A stretch of DNA of 53,342 nucleotides from a bacterium (GTDB taxonomy: Bacteria > Bacillota_I > Bacilli_A > RF39 > UBA660): positions 1 to 53,342 of the forward strand of contig JAUNSN010000004.1 of assembly GCA_030539175.1 (NCBI GenBank). Reading direction: 5' to 3'. Under the pieces are notes generated by a model that was not told the origin of the DNA, did no database searches, and was given only the letters and a program-made list of their open reading frames with translations. This document shows, piece by piece, positions 2,250 through 46,961 of the stretch (position 1 is its first letter; every line of letters begins with the position of its first letter). Position numbers and translations under genes: made by a program.

Positions 2250-2510
2250 CTATAACAAAGCATCTTTAAATAATTGAAGTACGGCAGTATATTCAGCTTG
2301 ATCTTCTATATCTAAAAGATAAACATCTCCATCAACTATAATTTCTTTAGCAATTAAATAAGTATCTTTAACATTTTCTTCAGCATCCACTTCAATTAAA
2401 TAACAATATCTACTATTATTATAATTAACTATTTCCGTAATAACATAAGATTTATTATCATTTAAATCAACTATTTGTCCAACAGCTATTACTATAGCAT
2501 CTTTTTCCAC
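2250..2510 (-). CDS. Small acidic protein, DUF1292-like (tentative)
   Basis: 86-aa ORF. The GTG start overlaps the upstream TAG stop (TAGTG), which suggests translational coupling. The pattern 'Y.V.E...N..YCYLIEVD....D.YL......DG.V.L..IED..E...V..LF' resembles the DUF1292 family by eye. Confidence 0.5.
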   Translation of the reverse strand: MEKDAIVIAVGQIVDLNDNKSYVITEIVNYNNSRYCYLIEVDAEENVKDTYLIAKEIIVDGDVYLLDIEDQAEYTAVLQLFKDALL

Positions 2511-6940: not shown

Positions 6941-7816
6941 TTAATAACCCATTTTCATAATATCTAATATTCTATTTAAATCAGCATTATTTTCAAAATA
7001 TATTAACATCTTTTTATTATTAATTCTAACTTTAGTACCAAGTGTTTCTGATAACGAATTTTCTAAATAGCTATACTCATTACTTTTTTCTTTTCTTGGC
7101 ATAGGAATCTTTTTCTTAACATCCTCAGATGTAGATATCCTTTCTAATTCTCTAACACTTAAGTTATTATCAATAACTAACTTAGCCATTTCTTCAATCT
7201 TTTTATCTTCATCAATCTTACTCAATACTCGCGCATGTCCCATAGATAATTCGTTGCCTAAAACCATATTTTGAACCTTATCAGGCAATCTAAGCAAACC
7301 TAAAGTATTAGTAACATGACTTCTACTTTTACCTAATTTAACAGCCAAATCCTCTTGTCTTATATGTAAGCTATCAATTATTCCCTTATAAGCCCAAGCA
7401 AGTTCAATAGATGACAAATTCTCTCTTTGAATATTTTCCAACAAAGCAATTTCACGCATTTCATCATCAGTAAAATCTCTTACTATGGCTGGAATAGTCG
7501 TTAAACCAGCTAATTTAGAAGCTTTAACACGTCTTTCACCAGCAACTATATAATAACCCTTTACATTCTTTTTAACAATAATAGGTTGAAAAACACCATA
7601 ACTCTTAATAGATTCAGCTAATTCATTTAAAGCATCCATATCAAAGTTTTTTCGTGGTTGATAAGGATTACTCATAACCTCAGATAATTTTATTTCTTTA
7701 ATATCTTTTTCAGTAGCAGATTCAACAATATTAGTTTCAAAAGCATCAAAATCTAAACCATCATTACCAAATAATTGCTCTAACCCTCTACCTAACGCTT
7801 TCTTTTTTTGTTCCAT
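6941..7816 (-). CDS. parB: Chromosome partitioning protein ParB/Spo0J
   Basis: 291 aa. 'ALGRGLEQLF', 'NPYQPR', the 'IVAGERRVKAS' arginine patch, and the HTH 'GKSRSHVTNTLGLLRLP'. Confidence 0.92.
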   Translation of the reverse strand: MEQKKKALGRGLEQLFGNDGLDFDAFETNIVESATEKDIKEIKLSEVMSNPYQPRKNFDMDALNELAESIKSYGVFQPIIVKKNVKGYYIVAGERRVKASKLAGLTTIPAIVRDFTDDEMREIALLENIQRENLSSIELAWAYKGIIDSLHIRQEDLAVKLGKSRSHVTNTLGLLRLPDKVQNMVLGNELSMGHARVLSKIDEDKKIEEMAKLVIDNNLSVRELERISTSEDVKKKIPMPRKEKSNEYSYLENSLSETLGTKVRINNKKMLIYFENNADLNRILDIMKMGY

Positions 7817-8603
7817 TTCTCTTAATAACCTCCTTAGCTAAATTAAAGTATGCCAAAGTTCCCTTACATGTTGGATCATAAGCAATAATAGGCTTTCCGT
7901 GAGAAGGAGCCTCAGATAATCTCACCATTCTCGGGATAATAGTATCGTATACTCTTTCTTTAAAAAAACTTCTAATATTCTCTACAACTTCAAATCCTAA
8001 ATTAGTTCTTGAATCAAGCATTGTTAATAAAACACCTTCAATATCTAATTCTGGATTCAACTTCTTTTGAGCTAACATTATAGAGTTTATTAGTTGCATT
8101 ATTCCCTCTAAAGCAAAAAATTCACATTGTACTGGTATTATAACAGAATCACTAGCAGTTAAAGCATTAGTAGTCAAAATACCTAAAGACGGAGGACAAT
8201 CAATTATTATAAAGTCATAATTATCCTTAATAGAAGATAACGCTACCTTTAGTTGAATAGTTTTATCAAACTTTTCACCATTAGTTTTAGCTTCTCTTTC
8301 TTTATCTAACAATTCAATATCTAAACCAGCTAAATTAATATATGCAGGTATTACATCTAAATTATTAAACTTAGTTTTCATTATTGACTTATTAATTACC
8401 TCTTTACCAGCTAACACTTCATATATACTTATCTTTATATCTCCTTTATTAATACCCACTCCAGTAGTCGCATTACCTTGAGGATCTAAGTCAATTAGCA
8501 ATACTTTCTTCTTTAAAACACCTAATGAAGCAGCTAAATTAATACTAGTAGTTGTCTTACCTACACCACCTTTTTGATTAACCATTGCTATAACTTTTCC
8601 CAT
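7788..8603 (-). CDS. parA: Chromosome partitioning ATPase ParA/Soj
   Basis: 271 aa. Deviant Walker A 'NQKGGVGKTTTSINLA' and 'IIIDCPPSLG'. It overlaps the parB start. Confidence 0.93.
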   Translation of the reverse strand: MGKVIAMVNQKGGVGKTTTSINLAASLGVLKKKVLLIDLDPQGNATTGVGINKGDIKISIYEVLAGKEVINKSIMKTKFNNLDVIPAYINLAGLDIELLDKEREAKTNGEKFDKTIQLKVALSSIKDNYDFIIIDCPPSLGILTTNALTASDSVIIPVQCEFFALEGIMQLINSIMLAQKKLNPELDIEGVLLTMLDSRTNLGFEVVENIRSFFKERVYDTIIPRMVRLSEAPSHGKPIIAYDPTCKGTLAYFNLAKEVIKRNGTKKESVR

Positions 8604-24249: not shown

Positions 24250-25009
24250 CTTTTACTTCCTCATCATAAATTGTATCGTCTATTAATACTTTATATTTAC
24301 CAGTAAATATATCAATAGATACTACACGTCCCATACCATTATTTGTAGTAACTAGAGAACCAACAGCAGGCATTTTACTCTTTAAATAAGAATAGCTTTC
24401 ATCCTCATAATTTAAACAACAAAGCAACCTACCACAAACACCATTAATTTTACTAGGATTCAAAGATAACATTTGATTTTTAGCCATATTAATAGAAACA
24501 CTATCAAAATTGTTTAGATATGTACTACAACATAAAAAACGTCCACATGGACCAATACCACCTAATATTTTTGCTTTATCTCTAATACCTACCTGTCTAA
24601 GTTCAATTCTTGTTTTAAAATAAGCACCTAAATCTCGAGCAAGTTGACGAAAATCAACACGACCATCAGACACAAACTTAAATATTAATTGACACCTATC
24701 AAAAGTATAATTAGCATTAATAATACGCATTTCTAATTTATTCTTTTCAATAAAATTTCGACATACACCTATCGCCTTAATAGAATCCGTTTCATTTTTT
24801 AGTTGAATTTTTTTATCTTGCTCAGTTGCAATACGTTGAACTACATAATCAAATTTATCACAACTCTCAACAAAAGAAACAACTTTACCATACAATAAGC
24901 ATTTATCATTAGAAACAATGACATCACTTCCAACAGGAAGTTCAATAATATTATTATTACAATATATCACTCGACCATTGGTTTCAAATTTAACACCAAC
25001 TACATTCAT
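24233..25009 (-). CDS. ricT: PSP1-domain regulatory iron-sulfur protein RicT/YaaT
   Basis: 'VVGVKFETNGRVIYC', 'GPCGRFLCCSTYL' and 'CGRLLCCLNYE' cysteine motifs. It lies downstream of holB. Confidence 0.87.
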   Translation of the reverse strand: MNVVGVKFETNGRVIYCNNNIIELPVGSDVIVSNDKCLLYGKVVSFVESCDKFDYVVQRIATEQDKKIQLKNETDSIKAIGVCRNFIEKNKLEMRIINANYTFDRCQLIFKFVSDGRVDFRQLARDLGAYFKTRIELRQVGIRDKAKILGGIGPCGRFLCCSTYLNNFDSVSINMAKNQMLSLNPSKINGVCGRLLCCLNYEDESYSYLKSKMPAVGSLVTTNNGMGRVVSIDIFTGKYKVLIDDTIYDEEVKDDCKK

Positions 25010-25847
25010 AAACATCACCGACCATCTTTATAATTACACTTTCCATTAGCATTACTAAATTTACATTATATTTTACAACACCTAAAGCAGACATAATAAC
25101 ATTAACCCTTTTAATTATATCATTTATTTCCAAATTAATAAATTCATTTATCGCTAATTTAGAAGAATAATTATTATTTACTTTTCCTTTAAGTACATTA
25201 ACATATATATCAAGAAACACTTCCATAGCAGCAATAAATGTTTGTTTATCATTAAAATAATTATGCCACAAACTATCCATATAAACAATAGAATGCAGTT
25301 TTTTTTCTTCAATACATAATGCAGTTTTTAATACTTTATTGTATAGTTCACTATCCACTAAAGTATTTACTTCCTCATCTTTTACCCTTATTATTTGACA
25401 TCGAGAAACAATTGTTGGAAGAATAGAATTTAAATTATTAGTAACTAAAAAAGCAACTACATCAGTAGATGGTTCTTCTAAAAATTTTAATAAACTATTA
25501 GCTGAATGTTTATTCATTTTATCACATTCATGAATAATATAAACTTGTTTATTACCACTTACTGATTCTTTAGAAAAGTTACTTTGTAATTCAATCAATT
25601 GCTCTTTTTTTATCCACATACCATCTGGTTTAATAATTTTTAAACCAAAATAATTTCCCTTATCAATTAAAGATGATATATTAGAAATATCTTCTTCTGT
25701 TTTATTAACAAGTAATATCTTCTTAACTATATCAAACAATAATTTTTCTTTATCTTTTATTCCCATATCAACAATTAAATAAGCATGCGATAAGCAATTA
25801 TTTAAAGCATATTTTGCAAACTTATTTATTGTATCTTTAGCATTCAT
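24990..25847 (-). CDS. holB: DNA polymerase III subunit delta'
   Basis: 285 aa. 'LSHAYL', 'NSLLKFLEEP' and 'ILPTIVSRCQ' clamp-loader motifs, with the degenerate Walker A typical of delta'. Confidence 0.82.
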   Translation of the reverse strand: MNAKDTINKFAKYALNNCLSHAYLIVDMGIKDKEKLLFDIVKKILLVNKTEEDISNISSLIDKGNYFGLKIIKPDGMWIKKEQLIELQSNFSKESVSGNKQVYIIHECDKMNKHSANSLLKFLEEPSTDVVAFLVTNNLNSILPTIVSRCQIIRVKDEEVNTLVDSELYNKVLKTALCIEEKKLHSIVYMDSLWHNYFNDKQTFIAAMEVFLDIYVNVLKGKVNNNYSSKLAINEFINLEINDIIKRVNVIMSALGVVKYNVNLVMLMESVIIKMVGDVYECSWC

Positions 25848-25858
25848 AAAATTACCTC

Positions 25859-26044
25859 CTAAAACAAAGATAAAGACATTATAACTAATCCAATTATAGA
25901 GGGAACACCTAATACCGTTACTAACATAACTGTAATTATATTAATAGGAATAGTAGCATTAAAAGATACTGCAACAACATTATAACCATACAACAATACA
26001 CAAGCAAATATTACTTTTTTTAATACTTTAAATATTTTTTCCAT
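25859..26044 (-). CDS. bofA: Pro-sigma-K processing inhibitor BofA family
   Basis: 61 aa with 2 TM segments. 'IPINIITVMLVTVLGVPSIIGLVIM' parallels B. subtilis BofA 'VPINLVTTAISGILGIPGIAALVVI'. Position next to recR is conserved. Confidence 0.72.
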   Translation of the reverse strand: MEKIFKVLKKVIFACVLLYGYNVVAVSFNATIPINIITVMLVTVLGVPSIIGLVIMSLSLF

Positions 26045-26083
26045 TTAGTATCACCAGTAGAATATATGAAAACAATAACAATA

Positions 26084-26686
26084 TTATGAAATATTTTTTC
26101 TTTCTTCCAAAGCTAATTCTAACGTTAAAGCATCAATATATTCCATATCTGCTCCAACTGGTATTCCACTAGCAATACGTGATATTTTAACAGAACAATT
26201 ATGTAATAATTTGTTAATATATTGCATAGTAGTTTCCCCTTCAATAGATGGTTTTAAAGCAAGTATTACTTCAGTAATATTATTGTTTTTTAAACGAACA
26301 ATCAACTCTTTTATAGTAACATCCTCGGGATTTATTCCATCAATTGGCGAAATCAAACCACCTAAAACATGATAAGTACCACTATAAACACCAAGTTTTT
26401 CAAAAGAAACAACATCTTTAGCAGTTTCCACAACCATAATTTGCGATTTATCACGTTTATTATCACTACAAATTATACATTTATCACCATCGCTAATATT
26501 AAAGCAATTACTACATTTACAAATTTTATCACGCAATTCTAAAATAGCATCAGAAAAATTAGTTAAATTATCTTTATCAAAGTTAAGCATTGAAAAAGCA
26601 AGTCGTTCCGCACTTTTTTCCCCAATACCAGGTAACAATTTTAAATTATCAATTATTTTTTTTACACTAACGGGATAAAACATCAC
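26084..26686 (-). CDS. recR: Recombination protein RecR
   Basis: 200 aa. 'LPGIGEKSAERLAF' HhH motif, a C4 zinc finger 'CSNCFNISDGDKCIIC', and a Toprim domain. Confidence 0.96.
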   Translation of the reverse strand: MMFYPVSVKKIIDNLKLLPGIGEKSAERLAFSMLNFDKDNLTNFSDAILELRDKICKCSNCFNISDGDKCIICSDNKRDKSQIMVVETAKDVVSFEKLGVYSGTYHVLGGLISPIDGINPEDVTIKELIVRLKNNNITEVILALKPSIEGETTMQYINKLLHNCSVKISRIASGIPVGADMEYIDALTLELALEERKNIS

Positions 26687-26982
26687 ATCAACCCAGAAAA
26701 ACCTTGACCATATTTACTCATTTTTTGTTCTTTATCTTCATCAATCTTTCTCATAGCATCATTGACAGCTACAATTATCATATCCTCTAACAATTCTATA
26801 TCATCATTTTCTATAGTATCTTTATCTTTTATCTCAACTTTAATTAATTCTTTCTTCCCATTTACAACAACACTAACTAAAGAACTAACGCCTTCATAAA
26901 CAGTTTCATTTAATTTTTCTTGTACCTCTAATATTTCTTTTTGCATTTTTTGTGCTTCTTTCATTAATTTTTGCATATTCAT
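26683..26982 (-). CDS. Nucleoid-associated protein YbaB/EbfC
   Basis: 99 aa. 'MQKLMKEAQKMQKEILEVQEKL...VVVNGKKELIKVEI'. It sits in dnaX-ybaB-recR synteny. Confidence 0.92.
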   Translation of the reverse strand: MNMQKLMKEAQKMQKEILEVQEKLNETVYEGVSSLVSVVVNGKKELIKVEIKDKDTIENDDIELLEDMIIVAVNDAMRKIDEDKEQKMSKYGQGFSGLM

Positions 26983-26995
26983 TATCTCAATCTCC

Positions 26996-28651
26996 TTATC
27001 TAATTTCTATTATATCATCACCAAAGACTTCAATCAAGGATTTTAAGTTGGAATCTTCTATATCTTCACTAATAAGTTCCTCTTCTTCTTCAATTAAAAC
27101 ATATTGATAATTATTATTTAGATTATCGATATATTTTCTTCTTTCAATTTCCCACTCTTTTTCATTCAAACAAACAATATTTATTGTTTTATTAAATAAC
27201 TCCTTTAACAAAAGACTTACTTGTTTTTCTAATGTATTGACCCGATCACGTACCGCAAGGGATTTTGCAAGCAATATCAAATTATTATCACCAGCAACTA
27301 ATACAGAAGTATCACGTAACAAACCCGCTACTATTTTGTATTTATCAACAATTAAAAAATCGTCCAACTGATTCCACTTATTTTTAGCATCAACCAATTT
27401 ATTCTTAGCGGCTGAACAAAAAGTATTATTAATTCTTAAATCTCTTTTAGGAAATAAATAATCAGTTAACTTTACTTCTCTTTTTTGGTTTTGAATATTA
27501 TTCAATTCTTTTTTATTTGGCACTTCCAGTAAGTTTTCCACAGGCTTATTTACACTTACTGGAATTATTGTTCCAGAGTTTTCCACAGGAGTGTCTATAG
27601 TCAACGAAACTAAATAAACTTCAAGTAAAACAAAAGGATATGAAGATATTTTTAATTCAGCCAACAGTTTATTCATCGCACCAAAACAAACATTTGCTTT
27701 TTCGAAGTTATATATAGATGCAAGATCACTTAACATTTTCACAGTACTATCTTCTTCAAAAACAACACCACTCTTATATAATAAAATATCTTTTATAAAA
27801 ATCATAAATTCTTCAACAAATTTTAAAATATTTTTACCTTCTTTATTCATTTTATCCACAATATTTAAAACATCAACTGTTGACTTTTCCCCAATAAATT
27901 TCAATAATTTATACATTTCTTCTAAACTAACAGTACCCGTAACTTCATGCACTGCTTCAACTGTTAATTTACCATCACAAAATGATATCAATTGATCAAG
28001 CAAACTAATTGAATCACGCATTCCACCATCTGATAAGCGCGCTATTTCTTTTAATACATCATCTGATACGTCTATTTTCTCTTTTCCACATATATATTTT
28101 AATCTAGCAACAATATTATCAACAGAAATTTTATTAAAGACAAATTTTTGACAACGAGATAACACGGTAACAGGAACTTTATGCAACTCAGTTGTTGCTA
28201 AAATGAAAATAACGTGACTAGGTGGTTCTTCAAGTGTCTTTAATAAAGCATTAAAGGCACTAGTTGTAAGCATGTGTACCTCATCAATTATATAAACCTT
28301 ATATTTAGCATTTGCTGGCACTAAATTAGCTTTTTCCCGCAAATCTCTTATCTCTTCCACCCCGTTATTTGACGCAGCGTCTATCTCTACAATATCTTCA
28401 TTAACCCCCAATAAACAAGTCGCACACTTTCCACAGGCCTCTCCTTTACTATTAGCTTCGCAATTAACCACATTTGCCAGTATTTTTGCCAAAGTTGTTT
28501 TACCTGTACCACGTTGACCCGCAAATAAATAAGCATGTGAAACACGATTATTAATTACTGAATTCTTTAAAACTCGTACTATATTATCTTGTCCAACAAC
28601 ATCAAAAAAAGTTTTAGGACGATACTTACGATACAATGCTAAATACCCCAT
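26996..28651 (-). CDS. dnaX: DNA polymerase III subunits gamma/tau
   Basis: 551 aa. 'GQRGTGKTT' Walker A, a zinc module 'CEANSKGEACGKCATC', 'IIDEVHML' and 'VLSRCQKF'. Confidence 0.96.
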   Translation of the reverse strand: MGYLALYRKYRPKTFFDVVGQDNIVRVLKNSVINNRVSHAYLFAGQRGTGKTTLAKILANVVNCEANSKGEACGKCATCLLGVNEDIVEIDAASNNGVEEIRDLREKANLVPANAKYKVYIIDEVHMLTTSAFNALLKTLEEPPSHVIFILATTELHKVPVTVLSRCQKFVFNKISVDNIVARLKYICGKEKIDVSDDVLKEIARLSDGGMRDSISLLDQLISFCDGKLTVEAVHEVTGTVSLEEMYKLLKFIGEKSTVDVLNIVDKMNKEGKNILKFVEEFMIFIKDILLYKSGVVFEEDSTVKMLSDLASIYNFEKANVCFGAMNKLLAELKISSYPFVLLEVYLVSLTIDTPVENSGTIIPVSVNKPVENLLEVPNKKELNNIQNQKREVKLTDYLFPKRDLRINNTFCSAAKNKLVDAKNKWNQLDDFLIVDKYKIVAGLLRDTSVLVAGDNNLILLAKSLAVRDRVNTLEKQVSLLLKELFNKTINIVCLNEKEWEIERRKYIDNLNNNYQYVLIEEEEELISEDIEDSNLKSLIEVFGDDIIEIR

Positions 28652-28705
28652 ACAATCACTCCCTCACATAATTGTAACACAATATTTTATCCACACCAAG
28701 CCCCA

Positions 28706-29116
28706 TTATCGTTTATTGATAAAAAAAGATTTCAAAATTTGTCCACATGCTGCAGTATCATCATCTGATTTTTCCACAAGTAATTTATGTTCAAGATTAT
28801 AGTTGCTCATTTTTTCCACACCATATACAACACGAGAAATTCTAGCAGCTTTAATAGCAGCCATACACATATCACAAGGCATTAAAGTCACATACATAGT
28901 TGTATCATCTAATCTCCAATCTTTTATTTTTCGCGATGCAGAAATAATTGCGATTATTTCTGCATGCATAATAGCACATCCCTTATTCTCCTTTTGATTA
29001 TATCCCCTACCAATTATTTTATCATTTTTAACAATAACAGCACCAACTGGCACTTCATCATTGTTAAAAGCTTTACAAGCTAATTTATAAGCTTCTTTCA
29101 TATATTTATTAACCAC
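28706..29116 (-). CDS. tadA: tRNA-specific adenosine deaminase
   Basis: 'EVPVGAVIV', 'HAEIIAI' and 'PCDMCMAA' deaminase zinc motifs. The start is uncertain: GTG 29116 lies 9 nt after GGAG, with ATG 29125 and ATG 29101 as alternatives. The ORF-track extension to 29206 runs through the SRP RNA. Confidence 0.88.
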   Translation of the reverse strand: MVNKYMKEAYKLACKAFNNDEVPVGAVIVKNDKIIGRGYNQKENKGCAIMHAEIIAIISASRKIKDWRLDDTTMYVTLMPCDMCMAAIKAARISRVVYGVEKMSNYNLEHKLLVEKSDDDTAACGQILKSFFINKR

Positions 29117-29140
29117 AACAATCATCTCCAATATTATTAC

Positions 29141-29221
29141 AAATAAAAGATGCACACAATAATTAAGTGTTAAAGCTGCTACCTTCCGGTCCTGACTTGG
29201 TTCCACTATTATTGTTGCATC
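29141..29221 (-). ncRNA. ffs: Signal recognition particle RNA, small (4.5S-like) type
   Basis: The minus strand reads GAUGCAACAAUAAUAGUGGAACCAAGUCAGGACCGGAAGGUAGCAGCUUUAACACUUAAUUAUUGUGUGCAUC-UUUUAUUU. It contains the conserved domain-IV core GUCAGG-NCC-GGAA-GGN-AGCAGC. Relative to E. coli UCC..GGA it has the compensatory pair ACC..GGU. It closes with long terminal helices (GAUGCA/UGCAUC, CAAUAAU/AUUAUUG). A promoter lies at the right distance. Confidence 0.82.
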
Positions 29222-29227
29222 AACTAC

Positions 29228-29256
29228 ACTATAACACTTTATTTTATTTTAATCAA
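29228..29256 (-). promoter_or_regulatory. Sigma-A-type promoter for the SRP RNA (TTGATT-17-TATAGT)
   Basis: -35 TTGATT at 29251-29256 and -10 TATAGT at 29228-29233 on the minus strand, with a 17-nt spacer. The predicted start site coincides with the 5' end of the SRP terminal helix. Confidence 0.55.
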
Positions 29257-29447
29257 GTATTTAACATGAGTTTTCCACATATTTATTCATCACCAACCGC
29301 AACTACTTCAATTTTACACAAACATATTGCAATTTTGAATTTTTTGTTCATATATATAATACAATTATTAATTTTCTGACATATATAACCTTGCAGTTAT
29401 TAAAAAACTGCAGTAAATTTCAACGAACATTGCTCCAAAAAAGTCCA

Positions 29448-29463
29448 TGTTTCACGTGGAACA
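29448..29463. promoter_or_regulatory. parS site 1 (TGTTTCACGTGGAACA)
   Basis: Exact reverse complement of the B. subtilis-type parS TGTTCCACGTGAAACA. Flanked by A..T to give an 18-bp element. Confidence 0.85.
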
Positions 29464-29501
29464 TGAAACCATTATAATTAATACCCCCTATCTCTTTCAT
29501 T

Positions 29502-29552
29502 ATGTTACACCTCTAACATTGTTTTAACTATTTCATGTTAGAGGTGTAACAT
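29502..29552. repeat. Inverted repeat 1: ATGTTACACCTCTAACAT - 15 nt - ATGTTAGAGGTGTAACAT
   Basis: Perfect 18-bp arms. The loop is TGTTTTAACTATTTC. On the plus strand it is followed by G-T8. Each arm is a parS-like 16-mer whose central CACGTG is replaced by CACCTC. Confidence 0.9.
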
Positions 29553-29597
29553 GTTTTTTTTGAATACATCATAAATTTTTTATAAAAACTTGATTTA

Positions 29598-29613
29598 TGT
29601 TCCACGTGAAACA
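29598..29613. promoter_or_regulatory. parS site 2 (TGTTCCACGTGAAACA)
   Basis: Exact match to the parS consensus TGTTNCACGTGAAACA. Confidence 0.85.
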
Positions 29614-29737
29614 TAACGCAGAAATTTATTTTCTGCAACATTGTTATTGTAATTTTTAAATTTCTACAGCAAAAATATTACAAAACAAACAAAAATGCTA
29701 CCATATTATATAACTAAAGTTCCTATTTCATATTTCA

Positions 29738-29753
29738 TGTTTCACGTGGAACA
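29738..29753. promoter_or_regulatory. parS site 3 (TGTTTCACGTGGAACA)
   Basis: Identical to site 1, 290 bp downstream of it. Confidence 0.85.
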
Positions 29754-29791
29754 TGAAACCATTATAATTAATACCCCCTATCTTTTTCATT

Positions 29792-29842
29792 ATGTTACAC
29801 CTCTAACATTGTTTTAACTTTGTTATGTTAGAGGTGTAACAT
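29792..29842. repeat. Inverted repeat 2 (same 18-bp arms, loop TGTTTTAACTTTGTT)
   Basis: Perfect arms, 290 bp from repeat 1. Followed by GAATTTTTTT on the plus strand. Confidence 0.9.
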
Positions 29843-29888
29843 GAATTTTTTTGAATACATCATAATTTTTTTATAAAAACTTGATTTA

Positions 29889-29904
29889 TGTTCCACGTGA
29901 AACA
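29889..29904. promoter_or_regulatory. parS site 4 (TGTTCCACGTGAAACA)
   Basis: Identical to site 2, 291 bp downstream of it. Confidence 0.85.
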
Positions 29905-30028
29905 TAGCGTAGAATTTTATTTTCTGCAACCTTGTTATTGTAATTTTTATATTTCTGACATATATACCTTGCAGTTATTAAAAAATTGCAATAAATTTTA
30001 ACAAACATCACTGCAAAAAAAGAGTCTA

Positions 30029-30044
30029 TGTTCCACGTGGAACA
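30029..30044. promoter_or_regulatory. parS site 5 (TGTTCCACGTGGAACA, perfect palindrome)
   Basis: Fully symmetric parS variant, 291 bp from site 3. Confidence 0.85.
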
Positions 30045-30081
30045 TGAGAACACAGAATTTAATAGCTTCCATTTTTTCGTC

Positions 30082-30132
30082 ATGTTACACCTCTAACATT
30101 ACTTTAACTTTTTCATGTTAGAGGTGTAACAT
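30082..30132. repeat. Inverted repeat 3 (same 18-bp arms, loop TACTTTAACTTTTTC)
   Basis: Perfect arms, 290 bp from repeat 2. The flanks are diverged, but the arms and the loop core TTTAACT are conserved. Confidence 0.9.
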
Positions 30133-30179
30133 AAAGTTTTCTTAATACTTCATGAATTTTGAACAAAATACCTAATCTA

Positions 30180-30195
30180 TGTTCCACGTGGAACA
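30180..30195. promoter_or_regulatory. parS site 6 (TGTTCCACGTGGAACA, perfect palindrome)
   Basis: Fully symmetric parS variant, 291 bp from site 4. Confidence 0.85.
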
Positions 30196-30330
30196 TGATG
30201 TAAAAAATCATTTTTAGCACTAATTTAAATGCAGTTATTGTTTTTCTGCTACTGTTAATACACAGTATTTAAAAAGTTGCAACATTTATTCAATAACAAA
30301 TTATAATTAACAAAAATATCCACAGTATTA

Positions 30331-30368
30331 CAAAAAAATGTAGGTTATATTACCAAATACAACCTACA
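30331..30368 (-). terminator. Intrinsic terminator after gyrA
   Basis: The minus strand reads TGTAGGTT-(14 nt)-AACCTACA followed by TTTTTTT, 15 nt after the gyrA stop. Confidence 0.7.
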
Positions 30369-30382
30369 CATACATTTGTTTG

Positions 30383-32845
30383 TTAAATATCGTGTGCATT
30401 CAAATCATTTTCCACAACTTCATCTTCAGCGTCTGTTTTATCGATTAGGGATGCGGATGAAACGAATTGATTATCACGTAAATTAATTAATTTTACTCCT
30501 TGAGTAACTCGGTTTAATACAGATATTTGATTAACATCCAATCTTATAACAATTCCTTCATTGGTAATAATCATCAAATCTTCATCCCCATTAACTGTTT
30601 TAAATGAAATTATATCTCCATTTTTTTCAGTAATATTTAAAGTTTTTACTCCTTTACCACCACGATTAGTTATTCGATATTCACCTATTGGAGTTCTTTT
30701 TCCATAACCACGAGTTGTAAGAACCAACACATCTTGATTTTCATTAACTACTTCTAAGCCCACTAAGTTACAAGAATCACCCAATGTAATACCTTTAACA
30801 CCAGCTGCGACTCTTCCCATTACTCTAATAGAATCCTCGTTAAATCTAACCATTCGACCGTTTGAACCAGCCATCAAAATATCACAATTACCTGTAGTTT
30901 TCTTAACAGCAATTAATTCATCATCGTCACGTAAAGTTATAAATTTCTTACCAGTAGTTCTAATGTTTTCAAATTCTGATATATCTGTACGTTTAACATA
31001 ACCTAACTTAGTTCCAAAAATTAAATATTTTTCCACATCATTATGCGATATTCGCAATATAGCCATTATTTTTTCGTTATTATCCAAAGATAATAAATTA
31101 ATAATAGGTAATCCTTTCGATTGTCTAGAAAACTCAGGTATTTCATATCCTTTAATTCGATAAACTTTTCCACAACTACTAAAGAATAATATATAATCAT
31201 GAGTAGTAGCATTAGTCATTAACTCAACATAATCTTCATCATTTGTACTCATACCTTTAATTCCTACACCACCACGATTTTGAGTTTTATAAGTATTTAA
31301 AGGCAACCGCTTTATATACCCTTTATCAGTTAAAGTTAAAACAATATTTGCAACAGGTATCAAAGACTCATCTTCTATATAATCAATAGCAGTCATATCT
31401 ATAATTGTTTTTCTATCATCACCATACTTATTTTTTATTTCTAATAATTCTTCTTTTATAATCGTTAATACCCTCTCATCACTTGACAATATATCTTTTA
31501 AATCTTTTATTAACAATTCTAATTCTTTTAATTCACCAAGTATTTTATCACGTTCTAAACCAGTTAATCGCCTCATTCTCATATCTAATATCGCTTTTGC
31601 TTGAATCTCTGTCAAAGAAAATCTATTAATCATTTCATTCATTGCATCTACATCAGTCTTTGAACTTTTTAATATTTGTACTATTTCATCAATATTATCA
31701 AGAGCTATCTTTAACCCCTCTAATATATGGGCACGATTTAAAGCCTTTTCTAAATCATACTTAGTTCTTCTAACAATAACTATTCTTTGATGCTCTAAAT
31801 ACTTCTCAAGTATTTCCTTAATATTTAAAATACGTGGCTGTCCATCAACTAAAGCTAACATATTAATCCCATACGATGTTTGCAATGATGTATGTTTATA
31901 TAAATTATTTAATACCACATTAGCATTAGCATCTCTTTTAACATCTATAACTACTTTCATACCATTACGATTAGATTCATCAACTATTGTTGCTATACCA
32001 TCAATAGTTTTTTCTTTTACCAAATCAGCAATACGACTAATTAAATTAGCTTTATTCACTTGATAGGGAATCTCAGTGATAATTATTTTATCTTTATTTC
32101 CAGTAGTATCAATATTTACTTTAGATCTTATAGTAATAGTACCCTTACCTGTAGTATATGCTTTAACAATTCCAGCATTACCCAAAATAGAAGCACCTGT
32201 TGGAAAGTCCGGACCTTTTATAACTGATATAATATCCATAATATCTACATCGGGATTATCAATTAACATAACTATTCCATCAATAACTTCTCGTAAGTTA
32301 TGTGGGGGAATATTAGTCGCCATTCCAACGGCAATACCAGTCGAACCGTTAACTAATAAATTAGGAAATCTTGCTGGTAATACGACTGGTTCTTTTTCAC
32401 TTGCATCAAAATTATCCATAAAATCAACAGTATTCTTACCTATATCACGAATCAATTCTGAAGTTATTTTTGCCATTCTTGCTTCCGTATAACGCATTGC
32501 CGCCGCGCCATCTCCATCAACACTTCCAAAATTTCCATGACCATCAACAAGTAAATACCTAATTGAAAAATCTTGAGCTAATCTTACTAATGCATCATAA
32601 ACCGAAGAATCTCCATGAGGATGATACTTACCTAAAACATCACCAACTATTCTTGCACATTTTCGATGAGGTTTGTCGGCTGTTAAACCAAGCTCGTGCA
32701 TAGAGTAAATAATTCTTCTATGTACTGGCTTAAACCCATCTCTTACATCTGGTAAAGCACGTGCGACTATAACACTCATTGCATAGTTCAAAAAAGAAGT
32801 TTGTACTTCATTTGATAAATTAATATCAATTAATTTTTCTGCCAT
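30383..32845 (-). CDS. gyrA: DNA gyrase subunit A
   Basis: 820 aa. 'DGFKPVHRR', '[17 protein letters not shown]', and the catalytic '[10 protein letters not shown]'. Confidence 0.98.
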
Positions 32846-36012: not shown

Positions 36013-36483
36013 TTATTTATCTTTCCCAAAAGAAATGTTTCTTCGCTTTGATAATTCATTAATAAGCTTCATAATCCTAGTAATTTGATTATCAATAATA
36101 CGATAAGATACATCTAATTTTAAACTAACGTTATTAACAAATACAATAACCGTCCCACCATCATCACTATAATACTTCAAAATATTATTATAAGATATCC
36201 ACTTACAACCAAGATAATTTCTTGAAGATGCTGTTGGAAAAAATATAATATTGTTAGTTTCCTCAATAATAATTGGTGGTTTTACATTGGAAGATATAAT
36301 TGATGTAATACCTTCTTTTCTTCCCTCTAAAGAACTACCATAAAATTTACAACTATGATTAATTATAGACTTAGCTGTTGCATTGATTAAAATTTTATCA
36401 TTTCCTTCATACACATAGCTAGAATTATTATCAATGGGAAATATTGCTAAAGTATCTCGACCAATTTCATATTCCTTTATCAT
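36013..36483 (-). CDS. comK: Competence transcription factor ComK family protein
   Basis: 156 aa. 'YEIGRDTLAIFP', 'INHSCKFYGSSLEGRKEGITSIISSNVKPPIIIEETNNIIFFPTASSRNYLGCKWISYNNI' and 'VSYRIIDNQITR' align closely with B. subtilis ComK (CRFFGSSYAGRKAGT...HKPPIMVDPSNQIFLFPTLS...CGWIS). Confidence 0.9.
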   Translation of the reverse strand: MIKEYEIGRDTLAIFPIDNNSSYVYEGNDKILINATAKSIINHSCKFYGSSLEGRKEGITSIISSNVKPPIIIEETNNIIFFPTASSRNYLGCKWISYNNILKYYSDDGGTVIVFVNNVSLKLDVSYRIIDNQITRIMKLINELSKRRNISFGKDK

Positions 36484-39483: not shown

Positions 39484-39515
39484 AAAAACAAGAAAAAGAC
39501 GCTCAACGCGTCTTT
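39484..39515 (-). terminator. Intrinsic terminator of the HerA-like gene
   Basis: The minus strand reads AAAGACGC-GTTGA-GCGTCTTT followed by TTCTTGTTTTT. The stem overlaps the stop codon. Confidence 0.7.
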
Positions 39516-41295
39516 ATGTATTATTTTGCTGTGGTAATTCAACCATCCATCTAGCATAAACATCTGGATTAGCACTATGAGGTTCTGGATTAGGTAAATC
39601 CATTTTAACTATCATAGGTATTTTCATCATTTTTCCAAAAGCAACACAAGTACCAGCTTGTAGTGTTTTTTGTTTTTCCACAATCTCTTCACTAATATTA
39701 GGAACCATTTTTCGAACATATTCTAAATCGGTTGGATGATTTAGTTTAAAAATCATAAAATTAGAACATTGAGAAATAACGGTTTCTGATAATTCAGTTG
39801 GTCGTTGAGTAATTAAATCAAGTACTAGTCCAAACTTTCTCCCTTCTTTAGCGATTCGCTCGAAAATATTATAACCAAGTATTTCTAAATCAATATCTTT
39901 TTGCACAAACCTATGGGCTTCTTCAATCATAATATTAATAGGCATAACACCTCGCTCTGGCATTTCTTTAGTGAATTTAAATAAAATTCTCGAATAAATT
40001 TTAACAATCGCTTTAGCAAATCTATCATCAACATCTTCTAAAGTAAAATTAATTATTTGCGCTCGTCTTTGAGAATCAACCATAATTAAATTAGTAATAT
40101 ATTGATTTAAAGTAACGAAAGTATCATATTGAAAATATTTACCGTAATTTCCATTAATAATAGAATTAAGTTTAACTTTTAATGCAGTAGCTTCCCCGTA
40201 ACTCTTATCATTTAATAAAAGGCCTTCTGATATTAAAGTAAAATTCAAAGCAACAGCTAAATCTTCTAATGTAAAATAAACAGGTACATAATCTGATTTC
40301 CACTTTTTGTCTTTAATAATAAATTGTTCAATATATTTAGTAACTAATATTTGCTCAACAAAGTATCCTTCGCTATCAATATCAAAACACTTTCTTAATT
40401 GTCTTGTATAACCAATACCAGGTATTTCAACATTAAAATTTAATTCATTAGTATTACAAGTAGTTAAAATAGAAAATATTTGATCTCTAATTCTAGCAGT
40501 AACTTGATTACTATACATTACTGATAAAATAGCTGAAGCAATTAAATGATTCTGATAAATATTAGATTCTTCATCTTTTTTAGCAAAAATTGAAACATAA
40601 CTAAGAGTTTGTTCAATAACGCTAAGTTGAAAATAAGAAGTAACATCAAACATATTAGCAAAATCATCTACTGACATTAACCAAAGAGGGATTCTAAGTA
40701 TTTCAGAATTAGCTTCTAATTGTTCGATATTAGTTGAATATAATTTATAATTAAAATTAGGATTAATCTTATTTATATCTTTAAAAGAATTATGATATTC
40801 ACTAGTAGAATTAAAGATAAATAGATTACTATTAAAAGGAATAATATTTCCCATAGAAAATAAGTTTTGTACTACTCTAGCAACTCCATAAGTTTTCCCA
40901 CTACCAGTATTGCCAAAAAAAGCTGAATGATTACTAAAAAATTCGTTAATATCAACCTTAATAGGAAAGTCATTATAAAGTGGTGCCTTTCCCAGTAGCA
41001 TATTTCCATGCTTTTCGTTACCAACTAAAATAGATAACTCGTTATCATTAATAATTCGTATTGTCGCACTTAAACTAGGTTTGCGAATAATTCCACTTAA
41101 AAACTTATCATCAACAAATTCGCCTAAAAAACTAATAACTATTTGATTATTATTAACCTCTTTTATCTCACCTAATATTCTCTTAGTCCCATCTTCAAAT
41201 ATCACATTGTAATTTAATAAATCATCTGCAACAGCATTATTACCTAAAGAAACTAAAGCAAAATTTTTACTAATTGCTATGATTTTACCAAACAT
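39514..41295 (-). CDS. HerA/DUF87-type P-loop ATPase (putative hexameric translocase)
   Basis: About 593 aa. N-terminal barrel-like 'GKIIAISKNFALVSL...LGEIKEV', Walker A 'FFGNTGSGKTYGV', Walker B 'INIMIEEAHRFV', and 'EGRKFGLVLDLITQRPTELSETVISQCSNFMIFKL', which is typical of HerA-like ATPases. The start is set at the ATG after GAGGTG-N6. Confidence 0.8.
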   Translation of the reverse strand: MFGKIIAISKNFALVSLGNNAVADDLLNYNVIFEDGTKRILGEIKEVNNNQIVISFLGEFVDDKFLSGIIRKPSLSATIRIINDNELSILVGNEKHGNMLLGKAPLYNDFPIKVDINEFFSNHSAFFGNTGSGKTYGVARVVQNLFSMGNIIPFNSNLFIFNSTSEYHNSFKDINKINPNFNYKLYSTNIEQLEANSEILRIPLWLMSVDDFANMFDVTSYFQLSVIEQTLSYVSIFAKKDEESNIYQNHLIASAILSVMYSNQVTARIRDQIFSILTTCNTNELNFNVEIPGIGYTRQLRKCFDIDSEGYFVEQILVTKYIEQFIIKDKKWKSDYVPVYFTLEDLAVALNFTLISEGLLLNDKSYGEATALKVKLNSIINGNYGKYFQYDTFVTLNQYITNLIMVDSQRRAQIINFTLEDVDDRFAKAIVKIYSRILFKFTKEMPERGVMPINIMIEEAHRFVQKDIDLEILGYNIFERIAKEGRKFGLVLDLITQRPTELSETVISQCSNFMIFKLNHPTDLEYVRKMVPNISEEIVEKQKTLQAGTCVAFGKMMKIPMIVKMDLPNPEPHSANPDVYARWMVELPQQNNT

Positions 41296-41502
41296 AAAAA
41301 ACACCTCTCTATTCATAAAAACATTATAACAAAAAAAATAAATAAAAGAAACATTTTTTTTAAGGAAATTAAAAATAGTAATAATTAACTAAATATAAAG
41401 TTTTATTATCAAAAAATTTTAGTAGCCACTATATTTTGCCAATCTAACTTAAGACATTATTACAAATTAGTCAATCTTTTTTAACTTTACCACTTAAGAA
41501 TG

Positions 41503-43626: not shown

Positions 43627-44973
43627 ATGAATGATACAATTGCTGGTATAGCAACCTCAAAAGGAGTTGGTGCGATAAGCATAATAAGAGTAAGTGGAGA
43701 AGAAGCCATTAGCATCACTAACAAAATATTTAATAAGGACTTAAATAAAGTTAATACTCATACTATTCATTATGGTTATATAAAAGATAATGAAAAAATA
43801 ATTGATGAAGTTCTAGTAACTGTTATGAGAAAACCAAAGAGTTATACAACAGAAGATATAGTAGAAATAAATTGTCATGGTTCAATTTCAACTTGTGAAA
43901 GTATCCTACAATTATTAATAAAAAACGGGACCAGACTAGCTGAACCAGGAGAGTTTACGAAACGAGCATTTTTAAATGGTAGAATAGATTTAGTAGAAGC
44001 TGAAAGTATTATGTCTTTAATATCCTCAACAACTAATAAAGCCAGGGATATATCGATTAGTCAATTATCAGGAACAGCATCTGCTAATATAAAGTTGTTG
44101 CGCCAAGAAATTCTCGATATAATATCTCTTATAGAAGTTAATATTGATTATCCAGAATATGAAGATATTAGTGTATTAACAAATGAAGAACTTTTACCAC
44201 AAATAAATAACATAATCAAAAAATTAGATGATATTTTAAAAATTTCTCATACAGCAAGAATATATACAAATGGAATAAAAGTTGGAATAGTTGGAAAACC
44301 CAATGTTGGAAAATCTAGTTTATTAAACGCTTTGTTAAACGAAGATAAAGCTATAGTGACTAGTATTCCTGGAACTACTACTGATATAGTAGAGGGGAAT
44401 ATTAAAATAAATGATTTACTATTACAAATAACAGATACGGCAGGTATAAGAGAAAGTACTAATAAGATAGAAGAATTAGGGGTAGAAAAAAGCAAACAAA
44501 TAATCCATTCAAGTGAATTAATATTATTAGTTTTAAACAACAATGAAGAATTTACCAAAGAAGATGAATTATTAATAGAAAGTATAAAAGATAAACCGCA
44601 TATTATCATTATTAATAAGATAGATTTAGAACAAAAATTAATATTGCCATCTATATATAAAGCAATATATATAAGTATAGAAAATAAACAAGGGTTAGAA
44701 GAACTAAAACAAACAATAAATAATATGTTTAATAGTGATAATATTAAAACAGAAAATCCAACATATTTAACAACATCAAGAACACTTGGTTTAATAGAAA
44801 AAGCAAAAAATTTATTGTTAAAAAGTAAACACGCAATCAAAGAAGCAACTCCAATAGATATAGTAGAAATAGATATAAAAGAAGCATGGCAAGTATTAGG
44901 AGAGATAACAGGAGAATACTATACAACAGAAATGATAGATAATATATTTGCAAATTTTTGTTTAGGAAAATAA
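43627..44973 (+). CDS. mnmE: tRNA modification GTPase MnmE
   Basis: 448 aa. 'DTIAGIATS', G1 'GKPNVGKSSLLNAL', 'DTAGIR', and the C-terminal 'FCLGK'. Confidence 0.96.
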   Translation: MNDTIAGIATSKGVGAISIIRVSGEEAISITNKIFNKDLNKVNTHTIHYGYIKDNEKIIDEVLVTVMRKPKSYTTEDIVEINCHGSISTCESILQLLIKNGTRLAEPGEFTKRAFLNGRIDLVEAESIMSLISSTTNKARDISISQLSGTASANIKLLRQEILDIISLIEVNIDYPEYEDISVLTNEELLPQINNIIKKLDDILKISHTARIYTNGIKVGIVGKPNVGKSSLLNALLNEDKAIVTSIPGTTTDIVEGNIKINDLLLQITDTAGIRESTNKIEELGVEKSKQIIHSSELILLVLNNNEEFTKEDELLIESIKDKPHIIIINKIDLEQKLILPSIYKAIYISIENKQGLEELKQTINNMFNSDNIKTENPTYLTTSRTLGLIEKAKNLLLKSKHAIKEATPIDIVEIDIKEAWQVLGEITGEYYTTEMIDNIFANFCLGK

Positions 44974-45077
44974 AAAATTCTTTACTTATTTATTCACATT
45001 TGCTATAATACAGTAATGAGCGAAAAGCTCCTTGCTTACTATATAAAGTAAGCCTTAGTCCAAAGGGAGGTGTAAAA

Positions 45078-45365
45078 ATGAAACAATATGAAATAATGTT
45101 CATATTAAATCCTAATTTAGATAATGACAATTTAAAGAAGATTGTTAAAGTATTAGAAAAGTCTCTAACAGATAATAAAGCAACTATTACTTTATCAAAA
45201 GAATTAGGACAAAAAGAATTTGCTTACGAAATTAACAAACATAAGACAGGTTATTATTATTTATACAACATAGAAACAAAAACTAATGATGCTGTTAAAG
45301 AATTTGATCGTATTGCAAGAATTAATGAAAATGTAATAAGACATTTAATCATTAAAGAAAATTAA
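45078..45365 (+). CDS. rpsF: 30S ribosomal protein S6
   Basis: 95 aa. 'YEIMFILNPNL' and 'GYYYLYNIE'. AAGGGAGGTG RBS. Confidence 0.95.
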   Translation: MKQYEIMFILNPNLDNDNLKKIVKVLEKSLTDNKATITLSKELGQKEFAYEINKHKTGYYYLYNIETKTNDAVKEFDRIARINENVIRHLIIKEN

Positions 45366-45375
45366 GGAGTAAATA

Positions 45376-45861
45376 ATGAATAGAGTAATTTTAATTGGAA
45401 GATTAACGAGAGATCCAGAATTAAGATATAGTCAAAGTAACATGGCTTTGACAACTATTACAGTTGCGGTTGATCGTTATTCGCGTCAACAACAAGAAAA
45501 TACAGCTGATTTTATCAATTGTGTAGTATTCGATAAACAAGCAGAAAACGTATGTAAGTATTTATCAAAAGGAAGATTAGTTGCCGTAGAGGGAAGGATT
45601 CAAACTAGAAATTATGATGGACAAGATGGTAAAAAAGTATATGTAACAGAAGTTGTTGCTAATAATGTTAAGTTTTTAGAAAGTAGAAGTCAAGTATCAC
45701 AAGCTACTTCTAACCAACAACCCAACGAGCAAGTAAGCCCTTATAACTTTCAAAAACCATCTAATGAAGCACCAGCAACTTTAGATATTGCACCAGAAGT
45801 TGATCCATTCGAAAGTTTTGGTAAACAAACTGAAGTAAGTGATTCTGACTTACCATTTTAA
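45376..45861 (+). CDS. ssb: Single-stranded DNA-binding protein
   Basis: 'MNRVILIGRLTRDPELRY' OB fold and the acidic C-terminal tip 'DSDLPF'. Confidence 0.96.
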   Translation: MNRVILIGRLTRDPELRYSQSNMALTTITVAVDRYSRQQQENTADFINCVVFDKQAENVCKYLSKGRLVAVEGRIQTRNYDGQDGKKVYVTEVVANNVKFLESRSQVSQATSNQQPNEQVSPYNFQKPSNEAPATLDIAPEVDPFESFGKQTEVSDSDLPF

Positions 45862-45876
45862 AAGGAGGGAAATATT

Positions 45877-46092
45877 ATGAACGATTATAAGAAACCTAAA
45901 AGAAAAAAAATCTGTCACATGTGTGCTGGAAAATCAGTTAATTATAAAGATGTTAATATCATAAAAAAATATATTGGTGATAATGGAAAAATATTACCAA
46001 GAAGATTTACTGGAACATGTGCTAAACACCAAAGACAAGTAGCGCTTCAAATAAAACGAGCAAGATTCATGGGACTTATTCCCTATTGTTAA
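45877..46092 (+). CDS. rpsR: 30S ribosomal protein S18
   Basis: 71 aa. '[32 protein letters not shown]'. Confidence 0.95.
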
Positions 46093-46340: not shown

Positions 46341-46961
46341 ATGAGTAAAAAAACTAAAACAACATTATTTTTACAAATAAGTATTGTAGTTTTGGCAACA
46401 ATTGGAATAACTTATGCAGTTTTAACAACCTTAGGAACAGTATCTGTTGGTAATCTTACTGTTGCACCACTGGATGTCACCTATACAGGAACCTCAACTT
46501 TAACAATCAATAGTCTAACACCGATATTATCTAGTGACATAGCAACAAAAGCCCAAAAATTTGATTTCACCGTAAAGGCAAAAGCAACTAATACTGTAAC
46601 AGGGATATATGAAGTAGTTTTAAGAGATTTAGTTATAAGTACTAATTTAAAAGGTTCAACATATGGGCAATATGTAAAATGGCGATTATACAAATCTGAC
46701 AGTTTAATTAATTCAGGTACTTTCGCTTCTATTACATCAGATCAAGCAATTGCGAGCAATCCATTAAGATTGGTAATTAGTCCAAGTAGATTAACATTAC
46801 CAGCCTCAAGTGGGACGGCTGATTCATATTCCCTTTGGATATGGATAGAAGATTCTTGTAGCGATTATGATGTTTGTTCTAATGCTTCAGCATACAATCA
46901 AAATGCCATGATGAATCAAACAATTACTGGTGAATTAGGTGTAGATTTGTATAAGTCATAA
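46341..46961 (+). CDS. Hypothetical secreted or membrane-anchored T/S-rich protein
   Basis: 206 aa. N-terminal 'KKTKTTLFLQISIVVLATIGITYAVL' looks like a signal anchor. The rest is Thr/Ser/Asn-rich and appears beta-rich. AAGAAAGAGGTG RBS. I recognise no family. Confidence 0.6.
   Translation: MSKKTKTTLFLQISIVVLATIGITYAVLTTLGTVSVGNLTVAPLDVTYTGTSTLTINSLTPILSSDIATKAQKFDFTVKAKATNTVTGIYEVVLRDLVISTNLKGSTYGQYVKWRLYKSDSLINSGTFASITSDQAIASNPLRLVISPSRLTLPASSGTADSYSLWIWIEDSCSDYDVCSNASAYNQNAMMNQTITGELGVDLYKS

Follow-up and report, generated by a model that had tools for sequence, protein, structure and literature searches.

What is the role of an inverted repeat built from altered parS sequences that stands, three times over, between intact parS sites of a bacterial centromere? 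The question is raised by a 53,342-nt stretch of DNA (contig JAUNSN010000004.1, positions 1 to 53,342; hereafter the window), which has a GC content of 26% and comes from an uncultured bacterium of the Bacilli that forms spores. Close to the chromosome origin, between gyrA and the signal recognition particle (SRP) RNA gene ffs, lies a tandem array in which each unit contains two perfect parS sites and, approximately midway between them, one 51-bp inverted repeat. The reading we favour, with a probability of about 0.38, is that this repeat descends from parS and serves ParB, or a ParB paralogue, as a sequence-specific docking element that would be unable to load ParB clamps.

Six identical arms in a parS frame

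In each unit of the array, the first arm starts 54-55 bp after the start of the first parS, 15 nt separate the two arms, and the second parS starts 62-64 bp after the start of the second arm. The sites are as follows.

29363-30196 (834 bp), no strand: tandem centromere array, period 290, 2.9 copies, between the gyrA terminator and the SRP RNA gene
29448-29463, no strand: parS-A of unit 1, TGTTTCACGTGGAACA, perfect consensus
29502-29552: inverted repeat 1, arms 29502-29519 (+) and 29535-29552 (-), spacer TGTTTTAACTATTTC
29598-29613, no strand: parS-B of unit 1, TGTTCCACGTGAAACA, reverse complement of parS-A, perfect
29738-29753, no strand: parS-A of unit 2, perfect TGTTNCACGTGNAACA site
29792-29842: inverted repeat 2, arms 29792-29809 (+) and 29825-29842 (-), spacer TGTTTTAACTTTGTT
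29889-29904, no strand: parS-B of unit 2, perfect TGTTNCACGTGNAACA site
30029-30044, no strand: parS-A of unit 3, TGTTCCACGTGGAACA, perfect
30082-30132: inverted repeat 3, in the diverged unit, arms 30082-30099 (+) and 30115-30132 (-), spacer TACTTTAACTTTTTC
30180-30195, no strand: parS-B of unit 3, perfect TGTTNCACGTGNAACA site

The six 18-nt arms share one sequence, ATGTTACACCTCTAACAT, with 0 mismatches, where chance would give 0.10 matches at ≤3 mismatches. Their positions, the arm-to-arm distance of 33 bp (start to start, over a 15-nt spacer, in all three units) and the TTTAACT core common to the three spacers agreed with a first-pass annotation of the window. No seventh arm occurs anywhere in the 53-kb window, and all arms are confined to the array. 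The distances from arm to parS vary by 1-2 bp between units, while the arm-to-arm distance is fixed.

The window contains no parS site beyond the six perfect sites of the array. The arms score as parS sites with two mismatches (chance 0.08). Compared with TGTTNCACGTGNAACA, the arm core TGTTACACCTCTAACA carries two G-to-C changes in the same half, which turn the central CACGTG into CACCTC and abolish both the central CG dyad and the inner half-site; the arms thus lack the palindrome with an intact CG dyad that characterizes canonical parS. The outer half, TGTTACAC (heptamer GTTACAC), is consensus, and the inner half, TGTTAGAG, is non-consensus. In the mirror layout of each pair, both consensus halves point outward and both altered halves face the spacer.

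The first-pass annotation had described the arms as parS-like, asymmetric and mirror-paired. That description stood, and a further feature can be added to it, in that the two 'N' positions of the motif also differ from those of the clade's parS sites. The arms carry A5 and T12, whereas all 28 clade parS sites (window and relatives) have C or T at position 5 and G or A at position 12. With A5 and T12, the outer bases of an arm form a perfect TGTTA...TAACA palindrome, a feature missing from all 28 sites. Overall, 16 of the 18 arm positions match the local parS and 14 match the clade consensus, including its extra A/T flanks, and the clade's extended parS frame ATGTT...AACAT is kept in each arm.

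The element had been judged to be neither a gene nor a known operator, and we reached the same view, which extends to known RNAs. Open reading frames (ORFs) in the units are short and in inconsistent frames, and a recurring MFHVEH peptide is parS read as codons. A small ORF or leader with a sequestered Shine-Dalgarno sequence was rejected: GAGGTG followed by ATG resembles a ribosome-binding site, but no ORF is kept across the units. In an Rfam 15 scan of the whole window, only the SRP RNA passed the gathering threshold, and a known RNA was also rejected.

Conservation of the arms against their surroundings

Identity is ~95% between units 1 and 2 and ~62% for unit 3; the first two are recent copies and the third is old. 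Between units 1 and 3, the arms were identical at 36 of 36 positions, while the spacer from parS-A to the repeat was 61% and that from the repeat to parS-B 70% identical (P≈4e-7). In the 15-nt inter-arm spacer, 3 of 15 positions are different in each comparison (1 vs 2 and 1 vs 3), so that it varies more than the flanks even between the 95%-identical units 1 and 2. In the parS sites of the array, only the specified positions are kept, and two free positions differ between units. The conservation of the arms therefore exceeds the neutral expectation. Since gene conversion would homogenise the spacer along with the arms, and the spacer varies, purifying selection on the arms is the simplest reading.

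These comparisons bear on the idea that the element is a non-functional relic. A decayed parS pair would have become a perfect palindrome by intrastrand template switching, the unit would then have been amplified, and homogenisation would account for the identity of the arms. Quasi-palindrome correction is a recognised mutational process, the element is known in this lineage only, and array architecture turns over fast in the gyrA-ffs locus of relatives, all of which would suit a relic. However, the sequence directly flanking the arms of unit 3 shows 30-39% divergence, the inter-arm loop is different in every unit, and the nearby parS sites differ at free positions. Given this divergence, a relic would need conversion tracts that fit each 18-nt arm and skip the 15 nt between. 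Because conservation is confined exactly to the arms, we consider a relic the least likely of the four readings weighed here.

The same constraint could reflect a protein unrelated to ParB. The arms would then be operators for a dimeric protein that reads TGTTA-N6-TAACA or the whole 18-mer, for example a sporulation-specific origin-anchoring or regulatory factor, with two dimers placed about three helical turns apart. The outer palindrome created by A5 and T12, the constraint on all 18 positions and the rigid arm-to-arm spacing beside variable parS distances are consistent with such an operator. Nevertheless, no other perfect TGTTA-N6-TAACA was found in the 53 kb, one-mismatch matches occur at chance level, and no candidate regulator gene lies nearby. 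Moreover, a symmetric homodimer would not need a conserved, mirror-imaged asymmetric core. We regard an unrelated operator as improbable, although ahead of a relic. A wider operator regulon was rejected, as both TGTTA-N6-TAACA and the symmetric site TGTTAGAGCTCTAACA are absent from the rest of the window.

The gyrA-ffs gap in relatives

We compared the locus with eight loci from uncultured relatives (L009, L011, L013 and L119-L123). The nearest GyrA was 70-71% identical and the nearest ParB 74-75%, and all came from metagenome-assembled genomes of uncultured Bacilli or Erysipelotrichaceae-like bacteria. Synteny around gyrA is kept in the eight relatives, and all of them carry a parS cluster in the gyrA-ffs gap, with close pairs 28-51 bp apart.

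L009, 8469-8558: three parS sites 37 bp apart
L013, 8464-8575: three parS sites 45-51 bp apart
L122, 6464-6575: three parS sites 45-51 bp apart
L123, 6457-6563: parS sites 40 and 51 bp apart
L121, 6441-6491: a canonical parS and a 2-mismatch site, 35 bp apart
L011, 8560-8790: 28-bp tandem array, interrupted by an assembly gap
L120, 4669-4684: contig ends at the same kind of repeat unit as in L011
L119, 2692-3946: seven parS sites, units of ~460 bp, two parS per unit

This universal presence indicates an ancestral parS hotspot with fast turnover of its architecture, and makes the gyrA-ffs gap of this clade of uncultured Bacilli a rapidly evolving site whose tandem arrays are atypical of model organisms. 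Long-unit tandem arrays are not unique to the window, since L119 has one. Together, the close parS pairs of the relatives and the two-parS units of L119 make a parS-pair ancestor of the element plausible.

The arms were absent from the gyrA-ffs locus in all eight relatives, where the closest match was the relative's own parS, with four mismatches. Absence from close relatives that keep their parS sites had been proposed beforehand, together with a lack of specific protein binding to the arms, as grounds for refutation. The absence and the persistence of the parS clusters were both observed, but at only ~70% identity in GyrA these are not close relatives. Closer relatives were sought via identical short proteins, which returned the same strain again and nothing else. 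That independent assembly (L191; Logan, run SRR24915786) is 100% identical to window positions 24710-29475. It stops within unit 1, where a repeat would be expected to interrupt an assembly, and so confirms the left edge of the array.

Searches of genomes, viral contigs and metagenomes

A search of 185,579 species genomes with the exact arm gave eight isolated single matches in unrelated taxa, which by our own estimate is about the chance rate for an 18-mer, and no pair. The 16-mer core had 67 single matches in viral contigs, again near our own chance estimate. A mobile-element centromere was rejected because plasmids and phages gave no match and viral contigs only these chance-level single ones. 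A dispersed repeat or mobile element (a REP sequence, MITE or insertion sequence end) was also rejected, given that all six arms lie in the array and no paired match was found in genomes or metagenomes.

In metagenomes, we scanned for a degenerate inverted pair with the consensus half outside and a non-parS centre, which yielded 105 loci (L014-L118). None of the 105 has a CACCTC core. As homologues the look-alikes were rejected: ~90% are TGTTTCACATGAAACA / TGTTTCATGTGAAACA pairs, that is, one-mismatch parS beside parAB. The few multi-substituted ones (L049, L024/L073, L060, L085, L046 and L059) have no parS or parAB nearby, and L049, the sole look-alike viewed in detail, is a hairpin between convergent genes. 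Judged by 115 loci with clustered parS-frame sites, a double-transversion core such as CACCTC is not commonly tolerated as a parS variant. We found no description in the literature of parS-derived inverted repeats, cruciforms or 'pseudo-parS' inside chromosomal centromere arrays. The element is a lineage-specific variant of a chromosomal parS centromere, without known counterpart.

The scan also gave observations on parS itself. Because TGTTTCACATGAAACA stands beside parA and parB, usually without a canonical CACGTG nearby, the asymmetric CACATG is the working parS in many uncultured bacteria. Loci of this type include L103 5609-6098, L071 5005-5437 and L016 10-630 and span 31-65% GC; some of their arrays have seven sites in one orientation plus one inverted terminal site. 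A rule that close asymmetric parS pairs turn their altered halves inward was rejected, as unbiased scans of viral contigs gave 1 convergent, 3 divergent and 8 tandem pairs, i.e. random orientation, and the apparent excess of inward pairs in the metagenome loci came from selection bias. In addition, 12 isolated parS-frame sites with the core CACGGG (TGTTNCACGGGNAACA) were seen in the metagenome loci, with no other parS near.

A single parS-type ParB

The first-pass annotation had named four mechanisms with no preference among them, namely a second ParB-family specificity, a roadblock, a cruciform and an RNA hairpin, and none of these was confirmed. If the arms formed a second class of ParB-family site, as the first-pass annotation had suggested by analogy with Noc, a second binding protein might be expected. 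The window encodes one ParB, in a parA-parB pair ~22 kb from the array.

6941-7816, minus strand: parB, with ParB_N, HTH_ParB and ParB_C domains, a GERR CTP motif and a parS-type R...G helix-turn-helix
7788-8603, minus strand: parA (soj-type ATPase)

The best PDB match of this ParB is B. subtilis Spo0J (6sdk, E=1.7e-58). Its helix-turn-helix reads GKSRSHVTNTLGLLRLP...SMGHARVL, which in our own motif alignment corresponds to R173/T179/R184/G201 in Caulobacter numbering, the R-T-R-G type. R173 and G201 are invariant across ParB orthologues, and Noc has Q-K-K-R at these positions (PMC7383237). The recognition helix and the GHAR motif are the same in 25 homologues from genomes with ordinary parS clusters and without arms, and the unusual residues of the window ParB lie in its N- and C-terminal domains, outside the DNA-contact region. 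Nothing therefore suggests a changed ParB specificity, and co-evolution of ParB with the arms was rejected on the basis of the unchanged helix.

A second ParB- or Noc-like gene was looked for throughout the 53-kb window, and none was found. Noc-binding sites (TATTTCCCGGGAAATA; NBS) are also absent from the window within 2 mismatches, and the arms do not resemble them. Nor does the window contain the symmetric site TGTTAGAGCTCTAACA; as the arm is a hybrid with no symmetric version in the window, a new symmetric specificity is disfavoured. The proposal of a second specificity class thus found no support within the 53 kb. Loss of a noc gene next to parAB was rejected as well, because relatives share the tilS/ftsH-parAB layout and have no noc there.

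Some relatives do carry NBS-like sequences near their parS clusters. A site one mismatch off the NBS (TATTGCCCGGGAAATA) lies between two parS sites in L013 (8537-8552) and L122 (6537-6552), and perfect NBS occur a few kb downstream of the cluster in L011 (10378-10393) and L123 (8310-8325).

A disabled parS pair as a proposed docking element

We propose that the 51-bp element is a pair of disabled parS sites, probably descended from the closely spaced gyrA-ffs parS pairs of the clade. The arms would act as double-stranded, sequence-specific docking sites for a ParB-family protein. In Pseudomonas, ParB occupies half-parS heptamers in vivo, and this binding depends neither on spreading nor on the CTP patch or dimerisation; in P. 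aeruginosa these have the forms GTTCCAC and GTTTCAC and occur as hundreds of isolated heptamers across the genome (PMC10419367). By analogy, the likeliest binder would be the organism's own ParB, with one DNA-binding domain per arm; a ParB-family paralogue encoded elsewhere in the genome is a less likely candidate. With their dyad broken, the arms should hold protein without symmetric dimer engagement or CTP-clamp loading. The predicted outcome is ParB held in place halfway between the true loading sites of a unit, as an anchor, a bridge or a boundary.

Several observations weigh against this proposal. The ParB helix is shared with arm-less relatives, and no mark on the protein side identifies the arms as targets. 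The A/T at the 'N' positions is unused in the 28 clade parS sites, and half-parS in Pseudomonas prefers C or T there. The inner halves and 'N' positions are invariant, although they would be expected to drift if only the outer heptamer mattered (hand calculation, about P=1e-3 for the 16 inner positions with a background identity of 66%); this weighs specifically against a ParB site that uses the outer half only. Clustered parS-frame cores in 115 loci are almost exclusively CACGTG or CACATG, and never CACCTC. The element occurs in a single contig, with no comparative support. Finally, perfect complementarity and a variable loop are equally predicted if the element works as a hairpin.

We therefore weighed the possibility that the element acts as a nucleic-acid hairpin, i.e. 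a cruciform beside gyrA or an RNA stem-loop, and that its parS likeness reflects ancestry only. As a cruciform, it would be extruded from supercoiled DNA, e.g. as a topological or single-stranded DNA feature within the centromere. As RNA, it could be a plus-strand terminator or insulator shielding the ParB-parS complexes and the gyrA 3' end, or a small RNA of ~75 nt from a promoter-like site overlapping parS-A. An 18-bp inverted repeat already results from two identical parS palindromes at a distance of 33 bp, and the changes at their centres would prevent an arm from self-folding and from being bound by ParB.

The stability of the stem is consistent with this possibility. All three units form a perfect 18-bp stem with a 15-nt loop, for which the calculated free energy on either strand is -25 to -29 kcal/mol as RNA (z ~-7) and ~-16.7 kcal/mol as DNA (z ~-8.5). 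Every stem position is invariant, including those that ParB does not read, and in units 1 and 2 no part varies more than the loop. On the plus strand, the stem leads into T-runs (T8, T7 and T4CTT), and units 1 and 2 have a TTCACG-16-TATAAT sequence ~24 nt upstream of it.

Other features fit a hairpin poorly. The six identical arms offer no compensatory change as proof of pairing. The terminator scan makes no call on the element, because its 15-nt loop exceeds the maximum of 8; intrinsic terminators are further distinguished from it by its GC content (6 of 18 pairs), and its plus-strand T-runs, present in units 1 and 2, are weak in the third unit. The promoter-like site is not kept in unit 3, and promoter-like matches are as frequent as expected from shuffling. 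A permissive scan of the array against Rfam gave only sub-threshold eukaryotic miRNA-hairpin noise and no family. Cruciform extrusion is disfavoured by a 15-nt spacer. Furthermore, terminator stems normally evolve fast, and here 108 stem nucleotides stand without change. The invariance of 54 stem bp (no mismatch, wobble or compensatory change) while a third of the neighbouring bases changed, together with the retained parS frame, weighs against a hairpin that depends on pairing only. On balance, a functional hairpin or cruciform is only a little less likely than ParB-family docking; it ranks below docking and above an unrelated DNA-binding protein, with a relic last. If the hairpin were the functional part, it would be the first structured DNA or RNA element built into a chromosomal centromere.

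Returning to ParB-family docking, a more ambitious version takes the arms as a natural device that separates ParB docking from ParB loading. We rate this as speculative and improbable, and three forms of it are possible. The arms might be non-loading anchors or boundaries that shape CTP-clamp accumulation in the tandem centromere. They might instead be hybrid sites read by ParB and an undiscovered paralogue with TGTTAGAG specificity, acting as a heterodimer or a pair. Alternatively, they might form a supercoil-gated cryptic parS, in which the halves TGTTACAC and GTGTAACA of a perfect parS are split by the 33-bp palindrome CTCTAACAT-N15-ATGTTAGAG; extrusion of this inner palindrome would join the two outer halves.

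Current understanding treats ParB loading at parS as a clamp reaction that is symmetric and gated by CTP. For half-parS binding in Pseudomonas, there is no agreed function. The array is a natural construct in this respect, with two full loading sites and two half-competent mirror sites between them, three times over. If ParB binds the arms, they would be a ready substrate to separate docking from clamp loading and could show how the distribution of ParB is tuned by centromere architecture.

Comparison with known systems

The arms resemble Bacillus or Spo0J-type parS in frame, in 14 of 16 core positions, in the A/T flanks of the clade and in their place within an origin-proximal bona fide array. 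They differ in having no CG dyad, in their asymmetry, in the fixed A/T at 'N' and in always forming a mirror pair 33 bp apart. The closest experimental precedent is half-parS of P. aeruginosa; each arm has one intact parS half, GTTACAC. Unlike those scattered heptamers, the arms are present in six copies, all in the centromere, have A at the variable position and are paired in inverted orientation, and their non-consensus half TGTTAGAG is also conserved.

The NBS is a parS derivative read by the ParB paralogue Noc (PMC7383237). Like the arms, it is a parS-derived 16-mer with two changed positions per half-site that coexists with parS. In contrast, the NBS is symmetric and changed at half-site positions 1 and 6, whereas the arms are changed at positions 5 and 7 in one half only, in a window that has neither a Noc-like gene nor an NBS.

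Plasmid and phage centromeres offer architectural parallels. F sopC consists of 43-bp tandem repeats, and P1 parS has box A and box B around a bend; the array shares with them tandem centromere units, or different motif types inverted around an AT-rich centre. It differs in being chromosomal, with a ~290-bp unit that combines canonical parS and a parS-derived variant, and no sequence similarity to plasmids or phages was found. The element is also a stable intergenic stem-loop with a T-run on one strand, as are intrinsic terminators and REP-like hairpins. However, its stem, of 18 bp with a 15-nt loop, is not GC-rich, it occurs only in the array, and its sequence is invariant rather than merely conserved in structure.

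Locus context and further features

The gene order of the origin region on the minus strand is dnaA, dnaN, comK-like, recF, gyrB and gyrA, then ffs, tadA, dnaX, ybaB and recR. GC skew switches at ~41-42 kb of the window. The array lies ~8 kb from dnaA, and with parA and parB at 6941-8603 it has the origin proximity and the accompanying parAB of a canonical chromosomal parS. Its immediate surroundings are as follows.

29134-29231, minus strand: SRP RNA gene ffs, left boundary of the silent intergenic region containing the array
30338-30369, minus strand: gyrA intrinsic terminator, right boundary of the array region
30383-32845, minus strand: gyrA

Two minor features of the array adjoin its parS sites. 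In units 1 and 2, the promoter-like TTCACG-16-TATAAT (29451-29478 and 29741-29768, plus strand) overlaps parS-A such that its -35 element falls within the ParB site; were it active, it would be repressed by ParB. A small inverted repeat, GCAGAAA-N-TTTCTGC (29617-29637, minus strand), adjoins parS-B and has equivalents at ~29908-29928 and ~30199-30219. It is partially conserved in all three units and carries a terminator-like flag on the minus strand.

In the usual Firmicute order, mnmE is followed by mnmG-rsmG-noc-soj-spo0J. In the window, mnmE is followed directly by rpsF-ssb-rpsR (43627-46092), and the mnmG-rsmG-noc-soj-spo0J block is absent. The parAB pair stands instead beside tilS/ftsH, ~30 kb from dnaA on its opposite side, an arrangement shared with the relatives L192 and L193. 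The gene for a 600-aa HerA/DUF87-type ATPase (39514-41316, minus strand), which is unusual for an origin region, stands directly upstream of dnaA, between dnaA and rnpA/yidC. Two ORFs in the window have no Pfam match, one of 560 aa at 2510-4192 (minus strand) and one of 206 aa at 46341-46961 (plus strand). A ComK-family gene lies between dnaN and recF (36013-36483, minus strand; 2368-2817 in L009) and is in the same place in all relatives examined; in B. subtilis this gap is occupied by yaaA.

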